Shown piece by piece: positions 33,028 to 44,710 of a stretch of DNA of 64,000 nucleotides. The number at the start of each line of letters is the position of its first letter. Within the stretch, counting starts at the first letter, position 1. A program made the position numbers and the translations under genes. The stretch comes from Candidatus Latescibacterota bacterium (GTDB lineage Bacteria > Latescibacterota > UBA2968 > UBA8231). A model generated the notes under the pieces. The model searched no databases and was not told the DNA's origin. It saw nothing but the letters and a program-made list of their open reading frames with translations. The DNA is taken from positions 3,584,001 through 3,648,000 of the forward strand of contig OZ241867.1 in NCBI GenBank assembly GCA_965203175.1, read 5' to 3'.

Positions 33028-33870
33028 ATGGACGAGGGTTGGTCCATCGTCGAAGTGAACCGCGTCGGGGGAAGGTCGCGGTTGACATCCTGCTTGGCCG
33101 TCGCGCCGTTGAAGATCCTCAGTCCCAAGGTCGAGGCCGATTATAGCACTGCTATCCTTTCTAGTTATGGCGGCGGCTTGGTCGCTGGCGATTGCGCCCG
33201 GCTGCGCGTGCGCTGCGGCCGGGAAGCCAAGCTCTTTTTGGGCACGCAGGCCTTCACCAAAGTGTACAAGACCACCGACGGTAAGGTCGCGCGGCAGGAG
33301 CTAGCCGGGCACATCGAAGCAGGCGCTTGCGTAGTATCGCTGCCCGACCCGGTCGTGCCCTATGCCGACAGCGCTTTTGTGCAGGAGCAGGTTTGGCATC
33401 TGGACGCGGGGGCTTCGCTAGTCTTGCTCGACGGAGGTACCGCCGGCCGCGGCGAACGAGGCGAGCAGTTCCACTACAGGTCTTATACATCTAATATTTC
33501 CATCTACTTGGAAAGCGAACTGGTGTTGGCTGAGCGCTTGCGTTTGCAGCCCAAGCAGCAGGCACCCGACCGCGTTGGGGCTTTTGGCCAATACACTGCA
33601 TTTGCCAATGCCTTTATCGTCGGCGATCCAGTGCGCTCCGCTGTCGAGGAAGTGATGCGTCGTGACTTAGCGCGTCCGTTCACCGGTCAGCGGACGCGCG
33701 GGACTAGCAAGGCAATGTTGGTTTCGCACGCCGAACCTCGTCCCGGCGTGCTCGCGCTCCGCGCCTTGGGGCGGACCAATGGCGATCTAGAGGAAGTCTT
33801 GCACGCGCTCGCCACGGCTGTATCTCTGCCCCAAGTCCTAGGGGAAAATCCACTGCGCCGAAAGTATTGA
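33028..33870 (+). CDS. ureD: Urease accessory protein UreD/UreH
   Basis: PLKIL, SYGGGLVAGD, TQAFTKVYK, LPDPVVPY, GRGERGEQF. Confidence 0.9.
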   Translation: MDEGWSIVEVNRVGGRSRLTSCLAVAPLKILSPKVEADYSTAILSSYGGGLVAGDCARLRVRCGREAKLFLGTQAFTKVYKTTDGKVARQELAGHIEAGACVVSLPDPVVPYADSAFVQEQVWHLDAGASLVLLDGGTAGRGERGEQFHYRSYTSNISIYLESELVLAERLRLQPKQQAPDRVGAFGQYTAFANAFIVGDPVRSAVEEVMRRDLARPFTGQRTRGTSKAMLVSHAEPRPGVLALRALGRTNGDLEEVLHALATAVSLPQVLGENPLRRKY

Positions 33871-34109
33871 GCTCTTCGGCAGCAACCCCACGAAATATCA
33901 CACATTTGTCATTTTCGGGTGCTCGTCCTAGCCGCAGAGTGCTGCGAAGGGTGAACTCGTCCCACCACAAGGCGCTCAAAAACGACATATATGTCTGTTT
34001 ATAAACCAATAAAATAACATTTTTGTCGTCCATTGATTGGAAAAACTAAACGATCAAACCGCCAAAAATGCCATTTACGTACGAAAAATAAACAAAATTA
34101 CAAATTGCG

Positions 34110-34134
34110 TATCTCTTTGCAACATAAAGAGATA
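34110..34134. promoter_or_regulatory. Inverted repeat upstream of the sigma54 promoter (candidate regulator site)
   Basis: TATCTCTTT-N7-AAAGAGATA within an AT-rich tract. Confidence 0.5.
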
Positions 34135-34187
34135 GTACCAAAATTGTTCCCTTCTGCTCCGGCTGTGGACTGCTGTGGGTGCCGTTG

Positions 34188-34203
34188 TGGTATCCTTTTT
34201 GCA
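34188..34203 (+). promoter_or_regulatory. Sigma54 (-24/-12) promoter of the urt-ure operon
   Basis: TGGTATCCTTTTTGCA gives exact GG-N10-GC spacing about 90 nt upstream of urtA. Confidence 0.75.
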
Positions 34204-34290
34204 GTAGAAGAGCGGAATCGGTCGGAGCGGACTACCGGAACGGTGCGTTCAGGCCATTTAACACTACAATTCAATTCTTGGAGGGATTCA

Positions 34291-40848: not shown

Positions 40849-41604
40849 ATGCGGCTTGCACCGAGGGAAATCGACAAGCTAGTATTGCACAACGCCGGGT
40901 TTGTGGCGCAGAAGCGCTATGCCCGGGGCCTGCGGCTGAACTACCCGGAGGCGATCGCGCTGATCGCGGCGCAGTTGCTCGAATTTATCCGCGATGGCGA
41001 GCGGGTCGCCACTTTGATGGACAAAGGCAAGCAGTTGCTCGGGATTGAAGATGTGTTGCCGGGGGTGCCGGAAATGGTCCACGAGGTGCAGGTGGAAGGC
41101 ACGTTCCCCGACGGCACCAAACTGGTGACGGTGCATCAGCCGATCTGCCGGGCGCGCGGCAACGCCGAGTTGGCGCTCTATGGGTCGGGGCTGGTGCGCG
41201 TGGGAGAGACGTGGTCGCCGGACAATGCGTCTAGCGCCGCGCCCGGGGAAGCGCTGGTGGCGGATGAGGAACTCGCGCTCAATGATGGCCGCGAAAAAGT
41301 GGAGCTCGAAGTGGCGAACATGGGCGATCGCCCAGTGCAGGTGGGGTCGCACTTTCCCTTTTTTGAGGCGAACGCCGAATTGCGCTTTGACCGCGTACAG
41401 GCCTATGGCTTTCGCCTCGATATTCCCTCGGGGACGGCGGTGCGCTTTGAGCCTGGGGAGACCAAGACGGTGACGCTGGTTGCCGTAGCTGGCGAGCGCG
41501 TCGTCCAAGGTGGCAGCGGTTTGATCGGCGGGGCCTTGAGCGACGACAACAAGGCCGCCGCCCTTGAACGCGCTAAAGAGCGCGGCTTTTTAGGAGCGGA
41601 GTAA
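40849..41604 (+). CDS. ureAB: Urease gamma-beta fused subunit
   Basis: Gamma domain ([24 protein letters not shown]) followed by beta domain ([26 protein letters not shown]). Confidence 0.95.
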
Positions 41605-41606
41605 TC

Positions 41607-43310
41607 ATGCGTATTGATCGACGCGCTTATGCGGATATGTACGGCCCCACTACCGGCGACCGGGTGCGGCTGGGCGACACGGACTTAGTCGTCGAGGTCG
41701 AGCAAGATCACACCGTGTACGGCGAGGAGTGCAAGTTTGGCGGCGGCAAAGTGCTGCGCGACGGCATGGGGCAGCAGAGCGGCGCGAGCCAAAAAGAGGC
41801 GCTGGACTTGGTAATAACCAACGCGCTGGTGATCGACTACACGGGCATTTACAAAGCCGATATCGGCGTCAAGGACGGGCGCATCGCTGGGATTGGCAAG
41901 GCTGGCAACCCGGACATTATGCCGGGCGTCGCCAAGCAGATGGTCGTCGGCGCGACTACTGAAGTGGTGGCCGGGGAGAAGCTGATTTTGACGGCTGGGG
42001 CGCTGGACGTGCATGTGCATTTTATCTGTCCGCAGCAAGTGGAAGAGGCCATCGCGTCGGGGATTACTACGATGCTCGGGGGTGGCACCGGTCCGGCGAC
42101 TGGGACGAACGCGACCACTTGTACTCCAGGTGCCTTTTATATCCGTACGATGTTGCAATCGGCTGATGCTTGGCCGCTCAATTTTGGCTTTTTGGGCAAG
42201 GGCAATTCGTCGTTGCGCCCGGGGTTGGCGGCGCAAGTTGAGGCCGGAGCTTGTGGCCTCAAGCTGCACGAAGATTGGGGTACGACGCCAGCGGCTATTG
42301 ATTCGTGTTTGGCGGTTGCTGAAGAATTCGACGTGCAGGTTTGCATCCACACCGACACGCTCAACGAGTCGGGCTTTGTCGAGGCGTCGCGGGCGGCCTT
42401 CAAAGGGCGGACGATTCACACTTACCACACGGAGGGCGCGGGCGGTGGTCACGCGCCCGATATTATGCGGCTTTGCGGCGAGGCCAATGTGCTGCCCTCT
42501 TCGACCAACCCGACGCGGCCCTTTACGGTCAACACCATAGACGAACATCTGGACATGCTGATGGTCTGCCACCACCTCGACAAGAATATCCCCGAAGACG
42601 TGGCCTTTGCCGAGAGCCGGATCCGCCAGGAGACCATCGCTGCCGAGGATATTTTGCACGACTTGGGCGCGCTGTCGATTATCGCTTCGGACAGCCAAGC
42701 GATGGGTCGAGTGGGGGAGGTGGTGTGCCGGACTTGGCAGACGGCGCACAAGATGCGCCAGCAGCGGGGCCTGTTGCCCGAAGATGGGGGCGGTGCCGAC
42801 AACTATCGCGCACGGCGCTATGTCGCCAAATACACCATCAATCCAGCCATTGCCCACGGGCTCTCGGCCCAAATCGGCTCGGTGGAGACGGGCAAGCTGG
42901 CCGATTTGGTGTTGTGGCAGCCCGCCTTTTTCGGTGTCAAGCCAGAGCTAGTGATTAAAGGTGGAGTGATTGCCTACGCGCAGATGGGCGACGCGAACGC
43001 TTCGATACCTACGCCGCAGCCCGTGTATCCGCGGCCTATGTTCGGTTCCTACGGCAACGCGGTTGGGCCGACTTCGCTGGCTTTTGTTTCGCAGGCGTCG
43101 CGCGAGCGGGTGGGGGAGTACGGGTTGGCGAAAGAGGTCGTGCCGGTTGAGCATTGCCGCGACATTGGCAAGGCCGACATGCGGCTCAACGACGTGGTGC
43201 CCAATATCGAGGTTGACCCGGAGACCTATAAGGTGAAGGTTGATGGCGAGGAGATTACCTGTGAACCCGCGGAAAAACTGCCGCTGGCGCAGCTATATCA
43301 CCTGTTCTAA
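41607..43310 (+). CDS. ureC: Urease alpha subunit
   Basis: [47 protein letters not shown]. Confidence 0.98.
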
Positions 43311-43964
43311 ATGAATCGCCTCTATCCGTTAATGCACCTAGCCGATAGTGCGCTGCCGGCTGGTGGCTACGCCTTTTCCAATGGCTTGGAAGGGGCCTAT
43401 CAGTTGGGCTTACTGGATGCGCCTGGGGCGCTGGAAGAGTTCGTGCATTCGGCACTGATGGCTGCGGCCTGCGGCGAGATTCCCTTTATCCATTCTTGTT
43501 ATGTAGAATCCGACGAAGGTGCCGTGGCGGCAATGTTGCATTTCTACGACGCGATGATCGCGGCTCCGGCGATGCGTCGGGCGAGTTTGATCTTGGGCAA
43601 GAACTGGTTGCGGCTGATGGCTGGCTTGTACCCGGAGGTCAAGTTCGCAAACTTGCGGCGGGTGCACGCGCACTACACGGTGGTTTTTGGGTTGGCGTTG
43701 AAGGCTGCGGGCTTTGCGCAAGCTGACGCTCAGCATCTTTACATGTTTCAAGTGCTCAGGGACCAGATGAGTGCCGCAGTGCGTCTCGGGATCGTCGGGC
43801 CGATGGAGGCCACGCGACGGCAGTTGGGTCTGTATGTGTATTGCGAGGAATTGCTCGCGGAAGTAGCGGGGCGACCGTACGCACAAGCGATGCGTTGCGC
43901 GCCGCAGCTCGACATTGCCCAGAGCGTACACGACGATCTCTATTCGCGCCTTTTTCAGAGTTGA
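43311..43964 (+). CDS. ureF: Urease accessory protein UreF
   Basis: [30 protein letters not shown]. Confidence 0.93.
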
Positions 43965-43978
43965 ACGCAGGAGGATGT

Positions 43979-44710
43979 ATGGGGCACGACCACGACCACG
44001 ACCACACACACGAGCCTTTTGATTCGCCTGGACTTTTCGCCGAGCGCGAAGGCTCGGACCCGCACCGCGATTTTTCCGACCGCGCCTTTACGGTGGGGAT
44101 TGGCGGGCCGGTCGGCAGCGGCAAGACGGCGCTGTTGCAAGCTTTGTGCGAAAGGCTGCGCGACGAGTATAGCTTGGGGGTGGTCACCAACGACATCTTC
44201 ACTCGCGAGGACGCCGAGTTTCTGCTTCGACACGAGGCGTTGGAACAGGAGCGCATCGTCGGCGTCGAGACCGGCGGTTGTCCGCACGCGGCGATCCGCG
44301 AGGATATTTCGCTGAATTTGAATGCGCTCGAAGACTTGATGGATCGTTTTGCCGGGGGTATCGACTTACTGCTGGTCGAAAGCGGCGGCGACAACTTGGC
44401 AGCTCATTTCAGCCGCGAGCTCGTCGATTATTCGGTGTACGTCATCGACGTATCCGGCGGCGACAAAATTCCGCGCAAGGGCGGCCCGGGGACGACGCAG
44501 TCGGATTTGCTGGTAATCAACAAGACAGATCTGGCCGAGATGGTGGGGGCGGATTTGGGGGTGATGGATCGCGATGCCAAGAAGATGCGCGGCGAGGGGC
44601 CGACGGTCTTTGCTTGCATCAAGGATCGGGAGGGACTGGAGGCGATTGTCGAGTATATTCTCACGGCGCGGGAGAGGGCGTTGCTGTCGGAGGCGCAGAA
44701 GCCGTTTTAA
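43979..44710 (+). CDS. ureG: Urease accessory GTPase UreG with His-rich N-terminus
   Basis: [37 protein letters not shown]-terminal [11 protein letters not shown]. Confidence 0.97.

Follow-up and report, generated by a model that had tools for sequence, protein, structure and literature searches.

A two-chain, UreE-less urease operon of a Latescibacterota bacterium and its family among bacterial and eukaryotic ureases

Two-chain ureases are stated in a passage of a 2018 review (PMC6077230) to be known only from Helicobacter; the same review reports a three-to-one scenario for the single-chain enzyme, in which two-chain forms are not intermediates, and names the chain number of the primitive urease as an unanswered question. 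A fusion of ureA and ureB has also been described in Cytophaga and Blattabacterium, as noted in a section of PMC2768785. Table 1 of a 2009 study (PMC2770081) lists ureE-less genomes with a 'His-stretch UreG', including Cytophaga hutchinsonii, Anaeromyxobacter, Mycobacterium, Arabidopsis and fungi, and a His-rich UreG was proposed there, from co-occurrence, as a stand-in for UreE in bacteria; parts of two reviews argue the same role of the UreG tail for plants and fungi (PMC6077230, PMC10100864). In the current study, we analysed a stretch of 64,000 nt (the window) from the one-contig genome of a Candidatus Latescibacterota bacterium (GCA_965203175.1, contig OZ241867.1, positions 3,584,001 to 3,648,000), in which eleven genes on the plus strand (33028-44710) encode a urease with a fused gamma-beta chain (UreAB) and a separate alpha chain (UreC), the accessory factors UreD, UreF and UreG but no UreE, and a urea transporter. 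Judged by its sequence, the locus is very probably a urea-scavenging operon of an uncultured bacterium whose ure genes all fall into a single coherent family, the nearest relative of eukaryotic ureases among bacteria. A preliminary description, made from the letters of the window, had warned that similar systems might already be reported, myxobacteria included, and rightly so: Anaeromyxobacter stands in the table cited above, ureAB fusions of bacteria other than Helicobacter have been published (PMC2768785) and have an NCBIfam model, and the idea of a His tail in place of UreE has been published as well. A literature search, which covered Ligabue-Braun et al. 2013 through the review's summary, found no paper placing eukaryotic ureases inside this bacterial family.

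The fused gamma-beta chain and its bacterial family

UreAB (251 aa; 40849-41604) comprises a Urease_gamma domain (PF00547, residues 1-99) and a Urease_beta domain (PF00699, residues 132-228) in one open reading frame (ORF), and matches profile positions 1-230 of 231 of NF009671, 'bifunctional urease subunit gamma/beta' (339.7 bits; cut-off 243). The fusion, its N-terminus and a segment following gamma had been pointed out in the preliminary description, and all were found in this ORF, as was the proposed junction with ureC, 2 nt away and out of frame: the TAA at 41602-41604 is followed by the bases tc and, in another frame, by the ATG of ureC at 41607. This ATG is preceded by an AGGAG within the last part of ureAB, and ureC is translationally coupled to ureAB (2-nt gap, different frame). 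The catalytic alpha chain UreC (567 aa; 41607-43310; TIGR01792, 972.9 bits, cut-off 680) has all metal-site motifs, i.e., HVH, KLHEDWG, IHTDT, YHTEG, CHHL and SDSQAMGR, which we take to supply the ligands, including the carbamylated Lys in KLHEDWG, as assigned in the K. aerogenes enzyme.

Gamma-beta and alpha occupy two ORFs in different frames, and the enzyme is not a single-chain urease. UreAB does not classify with the Helicobacter-type UreA either, as it reaches 269.7 bits against a cut-off of 353 with model NF010592 and does so in two stretches. Among solved structures, two plant ureases match UreAB best, 4g7e with 271.6 bits and 3la4 with 268.4 bits, and both alignments cover residues 1-247 without a break, whereas H. 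pylori UreA yields 228 bits in two stretches. When only longer proteins were considered, UreAB had 913 matches, and those with an organism name among the best 120 were all eukaryotic single-chain ureases, from plants, corals, stramenopiles, alveolates, a red alga and a chytrid; the single-chain ureases among these 120 are 51-64% identical over 86-100% of UreAB, with alignments running across the gamma-beta linker. This linker holds an insertion of about 30 residues (UreAB about 100-130; ...P-I-C/A-x-E-x-G-x-x-E-L-A-L-Y-G-S...) that occurs, in our alignment, only in the window's family and in eukaryotes, and is absent from the classical ureases and the other fused lineages aligned. The sequence after the G-S of the linker is FLPVP in L064, L072 and L073, as in eukaryotes, YLPVP in L068, and GL-x-R in the window's subclade. 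Three proteins of 473-529 aa (P0001, P0005, P0084) were considered as new types of UreAB fusion and rejected, as Pfam shows gamma and beta only; their unmatched N-termini of 210-275 aa most likely reflect an over-called start.

Relatives of UreAB length are abundant, and the best 120 of 7999 listed are 67-95% identical, with Latescibacteria, Gemmatimonadetes, Verrucomicrobiota, Pontibacter, Hymenobacter and Rufibacter among the names. In contigs representing one genome per species, 405 stretches encode a UreAB relative. The best 80 of these derive from Latescibacterota (90-98% identical), metagenome-assembled genomes (MAGs) labelled Gemmatimonadota, Planctomycetota, Kiritimatiellia, Verrucomicrobiota, Hydrogenedentota, Fibrobacteria, Acidobacteriota, Desulfomonilaceae and many Bacteroidota. 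ORFs were extracted for the 80 loci, for the window and for another 19 named loci on plasmids or chromids, and gamma-beta is one ORF with a separate alpha gene in all 82 family loci. Five MAGs labelled Janthinobacterium lividum or Rhodanobacter (L060, L061, L066, L079, L075) carry a Hymenobacter-like ureAB, and three Gemmatimonadetes-labelled records (L009, L010, L014) are 95-96% identical to the window's UreAB, as are Latescibacterota chromosomes. Errors of binning or labelling are likely among the family MAGs, and phylum names need care. Fused gamma-beta chains were also seen in Deinococcus actinosclerus, Aminobacter niigataensis, Pleomorphomonas sp. and two Streptomyces plasmids (L094, L099, L105, L101, L102).

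Urease, UreG, UreD and UreF trees and the origin of the eukaryotic enzyme

Relationships were examined in a quick maximum-likelihood tree of 55 urease rows (14 eukaryotes, 17 references and, to represent the family broadly, 24 of its 82 loci) and in a more careful gamma-beta-alpha tree of 43 rows and 831 columns, computed under LG+C20+F+G4 with posterior mean site frequencies (PMSF). For the latter, 15 rows were dropped (Pleomorphomonas and both Streptomyces for their long branches, and twelve redundant or extra rows) and three Planctomycetota were added; its support is given as ultrafast bootstrap (UFBoot)/Shimodaira-Hasegawa-like approximate likelihood ratio test (SH-aLRT). In the careful tree, the 20 family bacteria and the 12 eukaryotes form a clade (100/100) apart from the 11 classical bacterial and archaeal ureases, a clade that the 55-row tree recovers with an SH-aLRT of 100. 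The 14 bacteria of the window's subclade (98/97) are the sister of a group uniting the eukaryotes with L073 (Acidobacteriota) and L064, L072, L068, L080 and L086 (Planctomycetota; 100/98), within which the eukaryotes join L068, L080 and L086 (97/93) and stand together at 99/96. The window adds one member to the family; other members stand nearer to the eukaryotes. A tree constrained to keep the 20 family bacteria as a clade without the eukaryotes loses 33 log-likelihood (lnL) units, with a p value of 0.0217 in the approximately unbiased (AU) test. The preliminary description had assigned all parts of the system to a bacterial clade sister to the eukaryotic ureases. A single clade does hold for UreAB, UreC and UreG, three of the five parts, but the sister relationship gives way to eukaryotes nested inside the family (AU p = 0.022).

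The clade does not depend on the fusion. The alpha chain alone (570 columns) supports family plus eukaryotes at 99 and eukaryotes plus the six near rows at 96, and gamma and beta with the linker columns removed (197 columns) do so at 100 and 92, respectively. The fused ureases of Deinococcus and Aminobacter fall outside the clade in both trees, and those of Pleomorphomonas and both Streptomyces in the 55-row tree; these other fusions are without the linker insertion, and Deinococcus, Aminobacter and Pleomorphomonas have UreE. Since these lineages lie outside and do not share the linker, the gamma-beta fusion arose several times, which contradicts the restriction of two-chain ureases to Helicobacter in the review. 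The same observations bear on the suspicion that the likeness to eukaryotes is an artefact of better-aligning fused chains, of composition or of long branches, and that the urease is an ordinary bacterial one. Identities of UreG, which do not discriminate (58-67% to eukaryotic or presumed-eukaryotic rows, 49-66% to classical bacterial UreG), and the quick searches behind the first trees would fit such an artefact, but four other fused lineages resist being drawn into the clade, the careful tree had no branches flagged as long, the clade is marked by two shared insertions independent of each other, and it survives linker removal, use of alpha alone and a UreG core without its tail. We consider an artefact most improbable.

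For UreG, a quick tree of the core (77 rows, 206 columns, N-terminal extension excluded) was computed after a partial Rubrobacter ORF and two long fusions had been dropped. It separates 35 classical rows from family plus eukaryotes with an SH-aLRT of 98, and all 11 named eukaryotic UreGs fall into a group of 22 rows together with L073, a Planctomycetes UreG and nine further representatives. Neither this tree nor the urease trees place the window's proteins in ordinary bacterial clades far from eukaryotes, an outcome that had been considered at the outset; both join the family with the eukaryotes. UreD (280 aa; 33028-33870; PF01774, 166 bits), in which the motifs YGGGLVAGD and LPDP noticed earlier were both read, and UreF (217 aa; 43311-43964; PF01730, 77.7 bits), whose start directly abuts the ureC stop, were compared among bacteria, and a protein-atlas search with UreF returned bacterial UreF clusters only. 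The family forms one clade in the UreD tree (19 rows, SH-aLRT 99) and in the UreF tree (16 rows, SH-aLRT 91), and both trees split into the window's subclade and a Planctomycetota/Acidobacteriota subclade. Because these trees repeat the subclades of the family, the five ure genes travel together.

In these trees, eukaryotic single-chain ureases and UreG branch from inside the bacterial family. Because of this position, the eukaryotic enzyme most likely arose by the joining of gamma-beta to alpha in a system that had a tailed UreG and no UreE. It is probable, with the direction of transfer being what we infer, that eukaryotes owe their urease system, or at least the enzyme and UreG, to a bacterial ancestor with two urease chains and no UreE, as in the window, and that the closest living bacterial kin of the eukaryotic system are found among Planctomycetota and Acidobacteriota. 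Several points weigh against this descent. The group compared in the AU test was chosen with the tree already known, the root was assumed to lie among the classical ureases, and the trees were built without Helicobacter, cyanobacterial and Asgard ureases. Eukaryote monophyly has a support of only 33 in the gamma+beta partition. The 22-row UreG group has a support of only 85 and the eukaryote label needs two changes on that tree; its eukaryotic rows are 10 named fungi, one eukprot entry and unlabelled representatives, with no named plant among them. The UreD and UreF trees hold bacterial rows only, with no eukaryotic counterparts.

The transfer could also have run the other way, with a eukaryotic single-chain urease and its UreD, UreF and UreG passing to a bacterium, splitting into gamma-beta and alpha and spreading among phyla. 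The trees carry no root of their own and would show family and eukaryotes as one clade in either case, and the patchy occurrence of the family across distant phyla fits horizontal spread. With the classical ureases as outgroup, however, the eukaryotes (99/96) come to lie inside bacterial diversity, with two successive bacterial groups branching earlier, and no bacterial row falls inside the eukaryotes in either urease tree. Constraining the bacteria to one group is rejected (p-AU 0.022), and the bacterial genes share operons with urtABCDE and have congruent UreD, UreF and UreG histories, which makes such a reverse transfer very unlikely.

Descent of the eukaryotic system from within the bacterial family would mean that a two-to-one fusion, of gamma-beta with alpha, produced the single chain rather than a three-to-one fusion, and that eukaryotes are without UreE because the bacterial donor had already exchanged it for a UreG with a tail. 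Two questions called open in the 2018 review (PMC6077230) would thereby be answered, and the urease system of plants, fungi and algae would gain a concrete, testable origin. The family bears on that review as a large two-chain group outside Helicobacter, as the presumable source clade of eukaryotic ureases, and as a case in which loss of UreE goes together with a eukaryote-type UreG extension. Eukaryote-type urease maturation could then be studied in bacteria, with cultured Hymenobacter and Pontibacter as models.

Nickel supply without UreE

The preliminary description had noted that the cluster lacks ureE, and the search of the whole genome that it called for bears this out: the best scores are 16.3 bits for UreE_C (cut-off 23) and 13.4 bits for UreE_N (cut-off 26.9). 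No UreE ORF was detected within about 10 kb on each side in any of the 82 family loci, compared with a UreE match in 13 of 17 non-family reference loci (the other four are actinobacterial, one of them cut by the end of the record). UreE_C did not exceed its cut-off in any of 31 genomes related to that of the window, and did so in one of five cultured Bacteroidota genomes that bear the family, that of Sphingobacterium paludis. This match (35.5 bits) lies elsewhere in the genome. Sphingobacterium belongs to a Sphingobacteriaceae/Chitinophagaceae branch (L076-L078, L081, L083, L084, L087, G005) with the order urtABCDE-ureAB-ureC and no ureD, ureF or ureG within 10 kb, and members of this branch may activate their urease with a classical accessory set.

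The nickel-inserting GTPase UreG (243 aa; 43979-44710; TIGR00101, 299 bits, cut-off 204.2) starts at an ATG at 43979 behind AGGAGG (43969-43974), and its P-loop, CPH, ESGGDN and NKTD motifs are intact. The N-terminal extension reported earlier is present, with five His in the first 12 residues; it comprises about 36 residues, in which a short His run is followed by a conserved PGxF...RDFxxRAFT segment. A HMMER search of 1.84 billion cluster representatives returned 4627 UreG-like proteins. After UreG's own cluster (77% identity), the next matches align from query residue 3-6 and so have the extension in common; they read ...H-x-H-E-x-x-x-x-P/A-G-x-F/Y-x-x-R..., followed by an R-D/N-F/Y segment. 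A profile built from nine UreGs bearing this motif retrieved named fungal UreGs (P0245 is that of Hericium), one eukprot entry and one Planctomycetes UreG, and returned no named plant UreG. Among the loci extracted here, the motif occurs in 59 of 59 readable family UreG ORFs and in none of the classical UreGs, which begin just ahead of the P-loop; in the alignment, the His-bearing tail of actinobacterial UreGs is a different one. In an alignment of 33 UreGs, the positions preceding the P-loop include H11, conserved in at least 90% of the rows, and four without any variation (G18, R30, R35 and T38). Solved UreG structures align to the window's UreG from residue 38 only. Three of the UreG representatives (among P0246, P0244 and P0242) are fusions or have long tails: one joins a MYG1-exonuclease domain to UreG (603 aa), one of 382 aa has a His/Asp/Lys-rich N-terminus of about 140 aa, and one of 585 aa has an unmatched C-terminal half.

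Replacement of UreE by the His tail is consistent with these data, and we infer, with somewhat more confidence than doubt, that the tail of UreG acts as the nickel donor. Weighing against such a role, the His run of the window is short (five His) and that of L046 and L056 shorter still, so that the conserved segment rather than the number of His may be what matters. An AlphaFold2 model (mean predicted local distance difference test (pLDDT) 85.9), in which the G-domain is confident, assigns residues 1-30 low confidence and no defined structure. Another chaperone, e.g., a SlyD-like protein, could supply nickel. On this alternative, urease and clade would be as described, nickel would come from a SlyD-type or otherwise unfamiliar chaperone or straight from a transporter, and the tail would serve docking to UreF/UreD or regulation. 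The near absence of the His run in some family members, which leaves PGxF...RDFxxRAFT as the conserved part, and the predicted disorder of the extension would suit it. So would the ureE-less genomes without a His stretch (Bradyrhizobium, Frankia) in Table 1 of PMC2770081, by which other routes exist, and the presence of a NicO-family transporter gene. The His-x-His-Glu/Asp just ahead of the conserved segment is nearly invariant, however, and a search of the whole one-contig genome found one UreC and one UreG/HypB-type GTPase only, i.e., no second urease and no HypB. In addition, a passage of PMC3663189 reports that His-to-Ala exchanges at the conserved N-terminal His site of Cryptococcus Ure7 abolished urease activity. 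The alternative thus appears unlikely, if worth keeping in mind, and donation by the UreG tail is preferred. The NicO-family (PF03824) gene encodes a nickel/cobalt transporter-like protein of 433 aa far from the operon (G000:C1:474535-475467; L107, L108) and is a candidate nickel importer; HupE/UreJ had no match in the genome, which does not exclude nickel import. Operons of the family, some of them in cultured species, allow the dissection of UreE-independent nickel loading.

The operon and its place among known urease systems

The genome consists of one contig of 6,579,469 bases with an estimated completeness of 93%. Eight of the eleven genes score above curated NCBIfam cut-offs and the other three, ureD, ureF and the gene of a porin, above those of Pfam, with E-values of the family matches from 1e-21 to 0 across the cluster. 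The first gene, ureD, begins 3 nt past the stop of an SDR gene upstream. Between ureD and ureAB lie urtA, the porin gene and urtBCDE. UrtA (424 aa; 34291-35565; TIGR03407 urea_ABC_UrtA, 580 bits, cut-off 492.75), the periplasmic urea-binding protein of a urea ABC transporter, starts with ATG and has an N-terminus resembling a signal peptide. It is followed by an outer-membrane beta-barrel porin (OmpL-like, BBP2; 35607-36506; PF07642, 41.7 bits) and by the permease UrtB (36629-38308; TIGR03409, 384 bits, cut-off 250.3), for which the start at 36629 appears the better choice and an ATG at 36575 is an alternative. An N-terminal extension of about 250 aa (36629-37400) with HEAT repeats (HEAT_2 match) precedes the permease domain of UrtB; an annotated Methylosinus urtB is similarly long (1575 bases). 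The second permease UrtC (38305-39363; TIGR03408, 435 bits, cut-off 296.2) and the ATPases UrtD (39377-40141; TIGR03411, 360 bits, cut-off 304.1) and UrtE (about 40128-40838; TIGR03410, 329.6 bits, cut-off 285.8) complete the transporter. The frame of urtE is open back to 40086, but its start is presumably the GTG at 40128 behind GGAGG, and the TIGR03410 match opens at residue 22 counted from 40086.

Where the loci of relatives labelled Latescibacterota or Gemmatimonadota extend far enough, the porin gene is likewise found between urtA and urtB (47-96% identity). Porin homologues also adjoin ureAB in Kiritimatiellia and Verrucomicrobiota loci, and the porin is a candidate outer-membrane urea channel. 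As far as family membership allows uptake, activation and enzyme activity to be predicted, urea would pass the outer membrane, probably via the operon's own porin, be bound by UrtA and imported by UrtBCDE, and be hydrolysed by a nickel urease of two chains, UreAB (gamma-beta) and UreC (alpha). UreD, UreF and the GTPase UreG would activate the apoenzyme, with nickel most likely donated, in place of UreE, by the N-terminal extension of UreG itself, as proposed for plant and fungal UreG. The operon, whose nearest relatives are in records labelled Latescibacterota, would mark these uncultured bacteria as users of urea for nitrogen. Contigs covering parts of the cluster were found in three metatranscriptome libraries from two studies (runs X18-X20); one such contig, of 1588 bases, covers the porin gene together with the last part of urtA. 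At only 90-95% identity these contigs come from relatives, and relatives of the operon may be transcribed in nature; against this stands that such libraries can hold DNA carry-over. As proof of transcription in this organism or of transcript ends they were rejected, for their identity and their contig form.

Downstream, an ORF on the minus strand (44707-46029) for a 440-aa pentapeptide-repeat protein with a membrane-like N-terminal segment converges on ureG, the two frames sharing a 4-base overlap. A match to RF02514, '5_ureB_sRNA', a Helicobacter antisense RNA, lies at 41754-42048 on the minus strand (96.2 bits; gathering score 40), antisense to the 5' part of ureC. It was rejected as a small RNA (sRNA) gene and probably reflects conservation of the ureC coding sequence; the model may ring on any ureC.

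Among known systems, those of NF009671, i.e., of Cytophaga hutchinsonii, Blattabacterium and cultured Hymenobacter, Pontibacter and Rufibacter, likewise have a fused gamma-beta chain and a separate alpha chain and, like the window, UreD, UreF and UreG without UreE and with the same N-terminal motif of UreG; UreAB identity across the family is 57-98%. Compared with them, the window represents a new, Latescibacterota-like lineage in which urtA, the porin gene and urtBCDE part ureD from ureAB. Unlike the window, Blattabacterium is without all accessory genes, according to a passage of PMC2768785. The classical three-chain UreDEFG systems of Klebsiella, Sporosarcina and Sinorhizobium share the chemistry, the UreD/UreF/UreG core and often the linkage to urtABCDE, but have separate gamma and beta chains, UreE and a UreG that starts right before the P-loop, and they fall outside the clade. 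Helicobacter uses UreE, and its two-chain urease (UreA as gamma-beta, UreB as alpha) has the same domain order as that of the window, whereas the linker is not shared and UreAB aligns to H. pylori UreA in two stretches. Actinobacterial ureABCFGD systems (Mycobacterium, Gordonia, Streptomyces) resemble the window in having no UreE and a His-containing UreG N-terminus (L101, L103; Table 1 of PMC2770081), but their tail is non-homologous, without PGxF...RDFxxRAFT, and their UreG and urease clades are separate; actinobacteria seem to have solved the same problem independently. The eukaryotic systems, represented by the single-chain ureases of jack bean (3LA4) and pigeon pea (4G7E) and by the UreD, UreF and His-rich UreG of Arabidopsis, soybean, Cryptococcus (Ure7) and Aspergillus, fall in the same clade as the window in the urease and UreG trees and share with it the gamma-beta linker insertion, the N-terminal motif of UreG and the lack of UreE. 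They differ in that the window has two chains and no beta-alpha linker domain (PF18473 was seen only in plant rows of the longer-protein search), a UreG with a much shorter His run than those of fungi and plants, and genes gathered in an operon with a urea ABC transporter.

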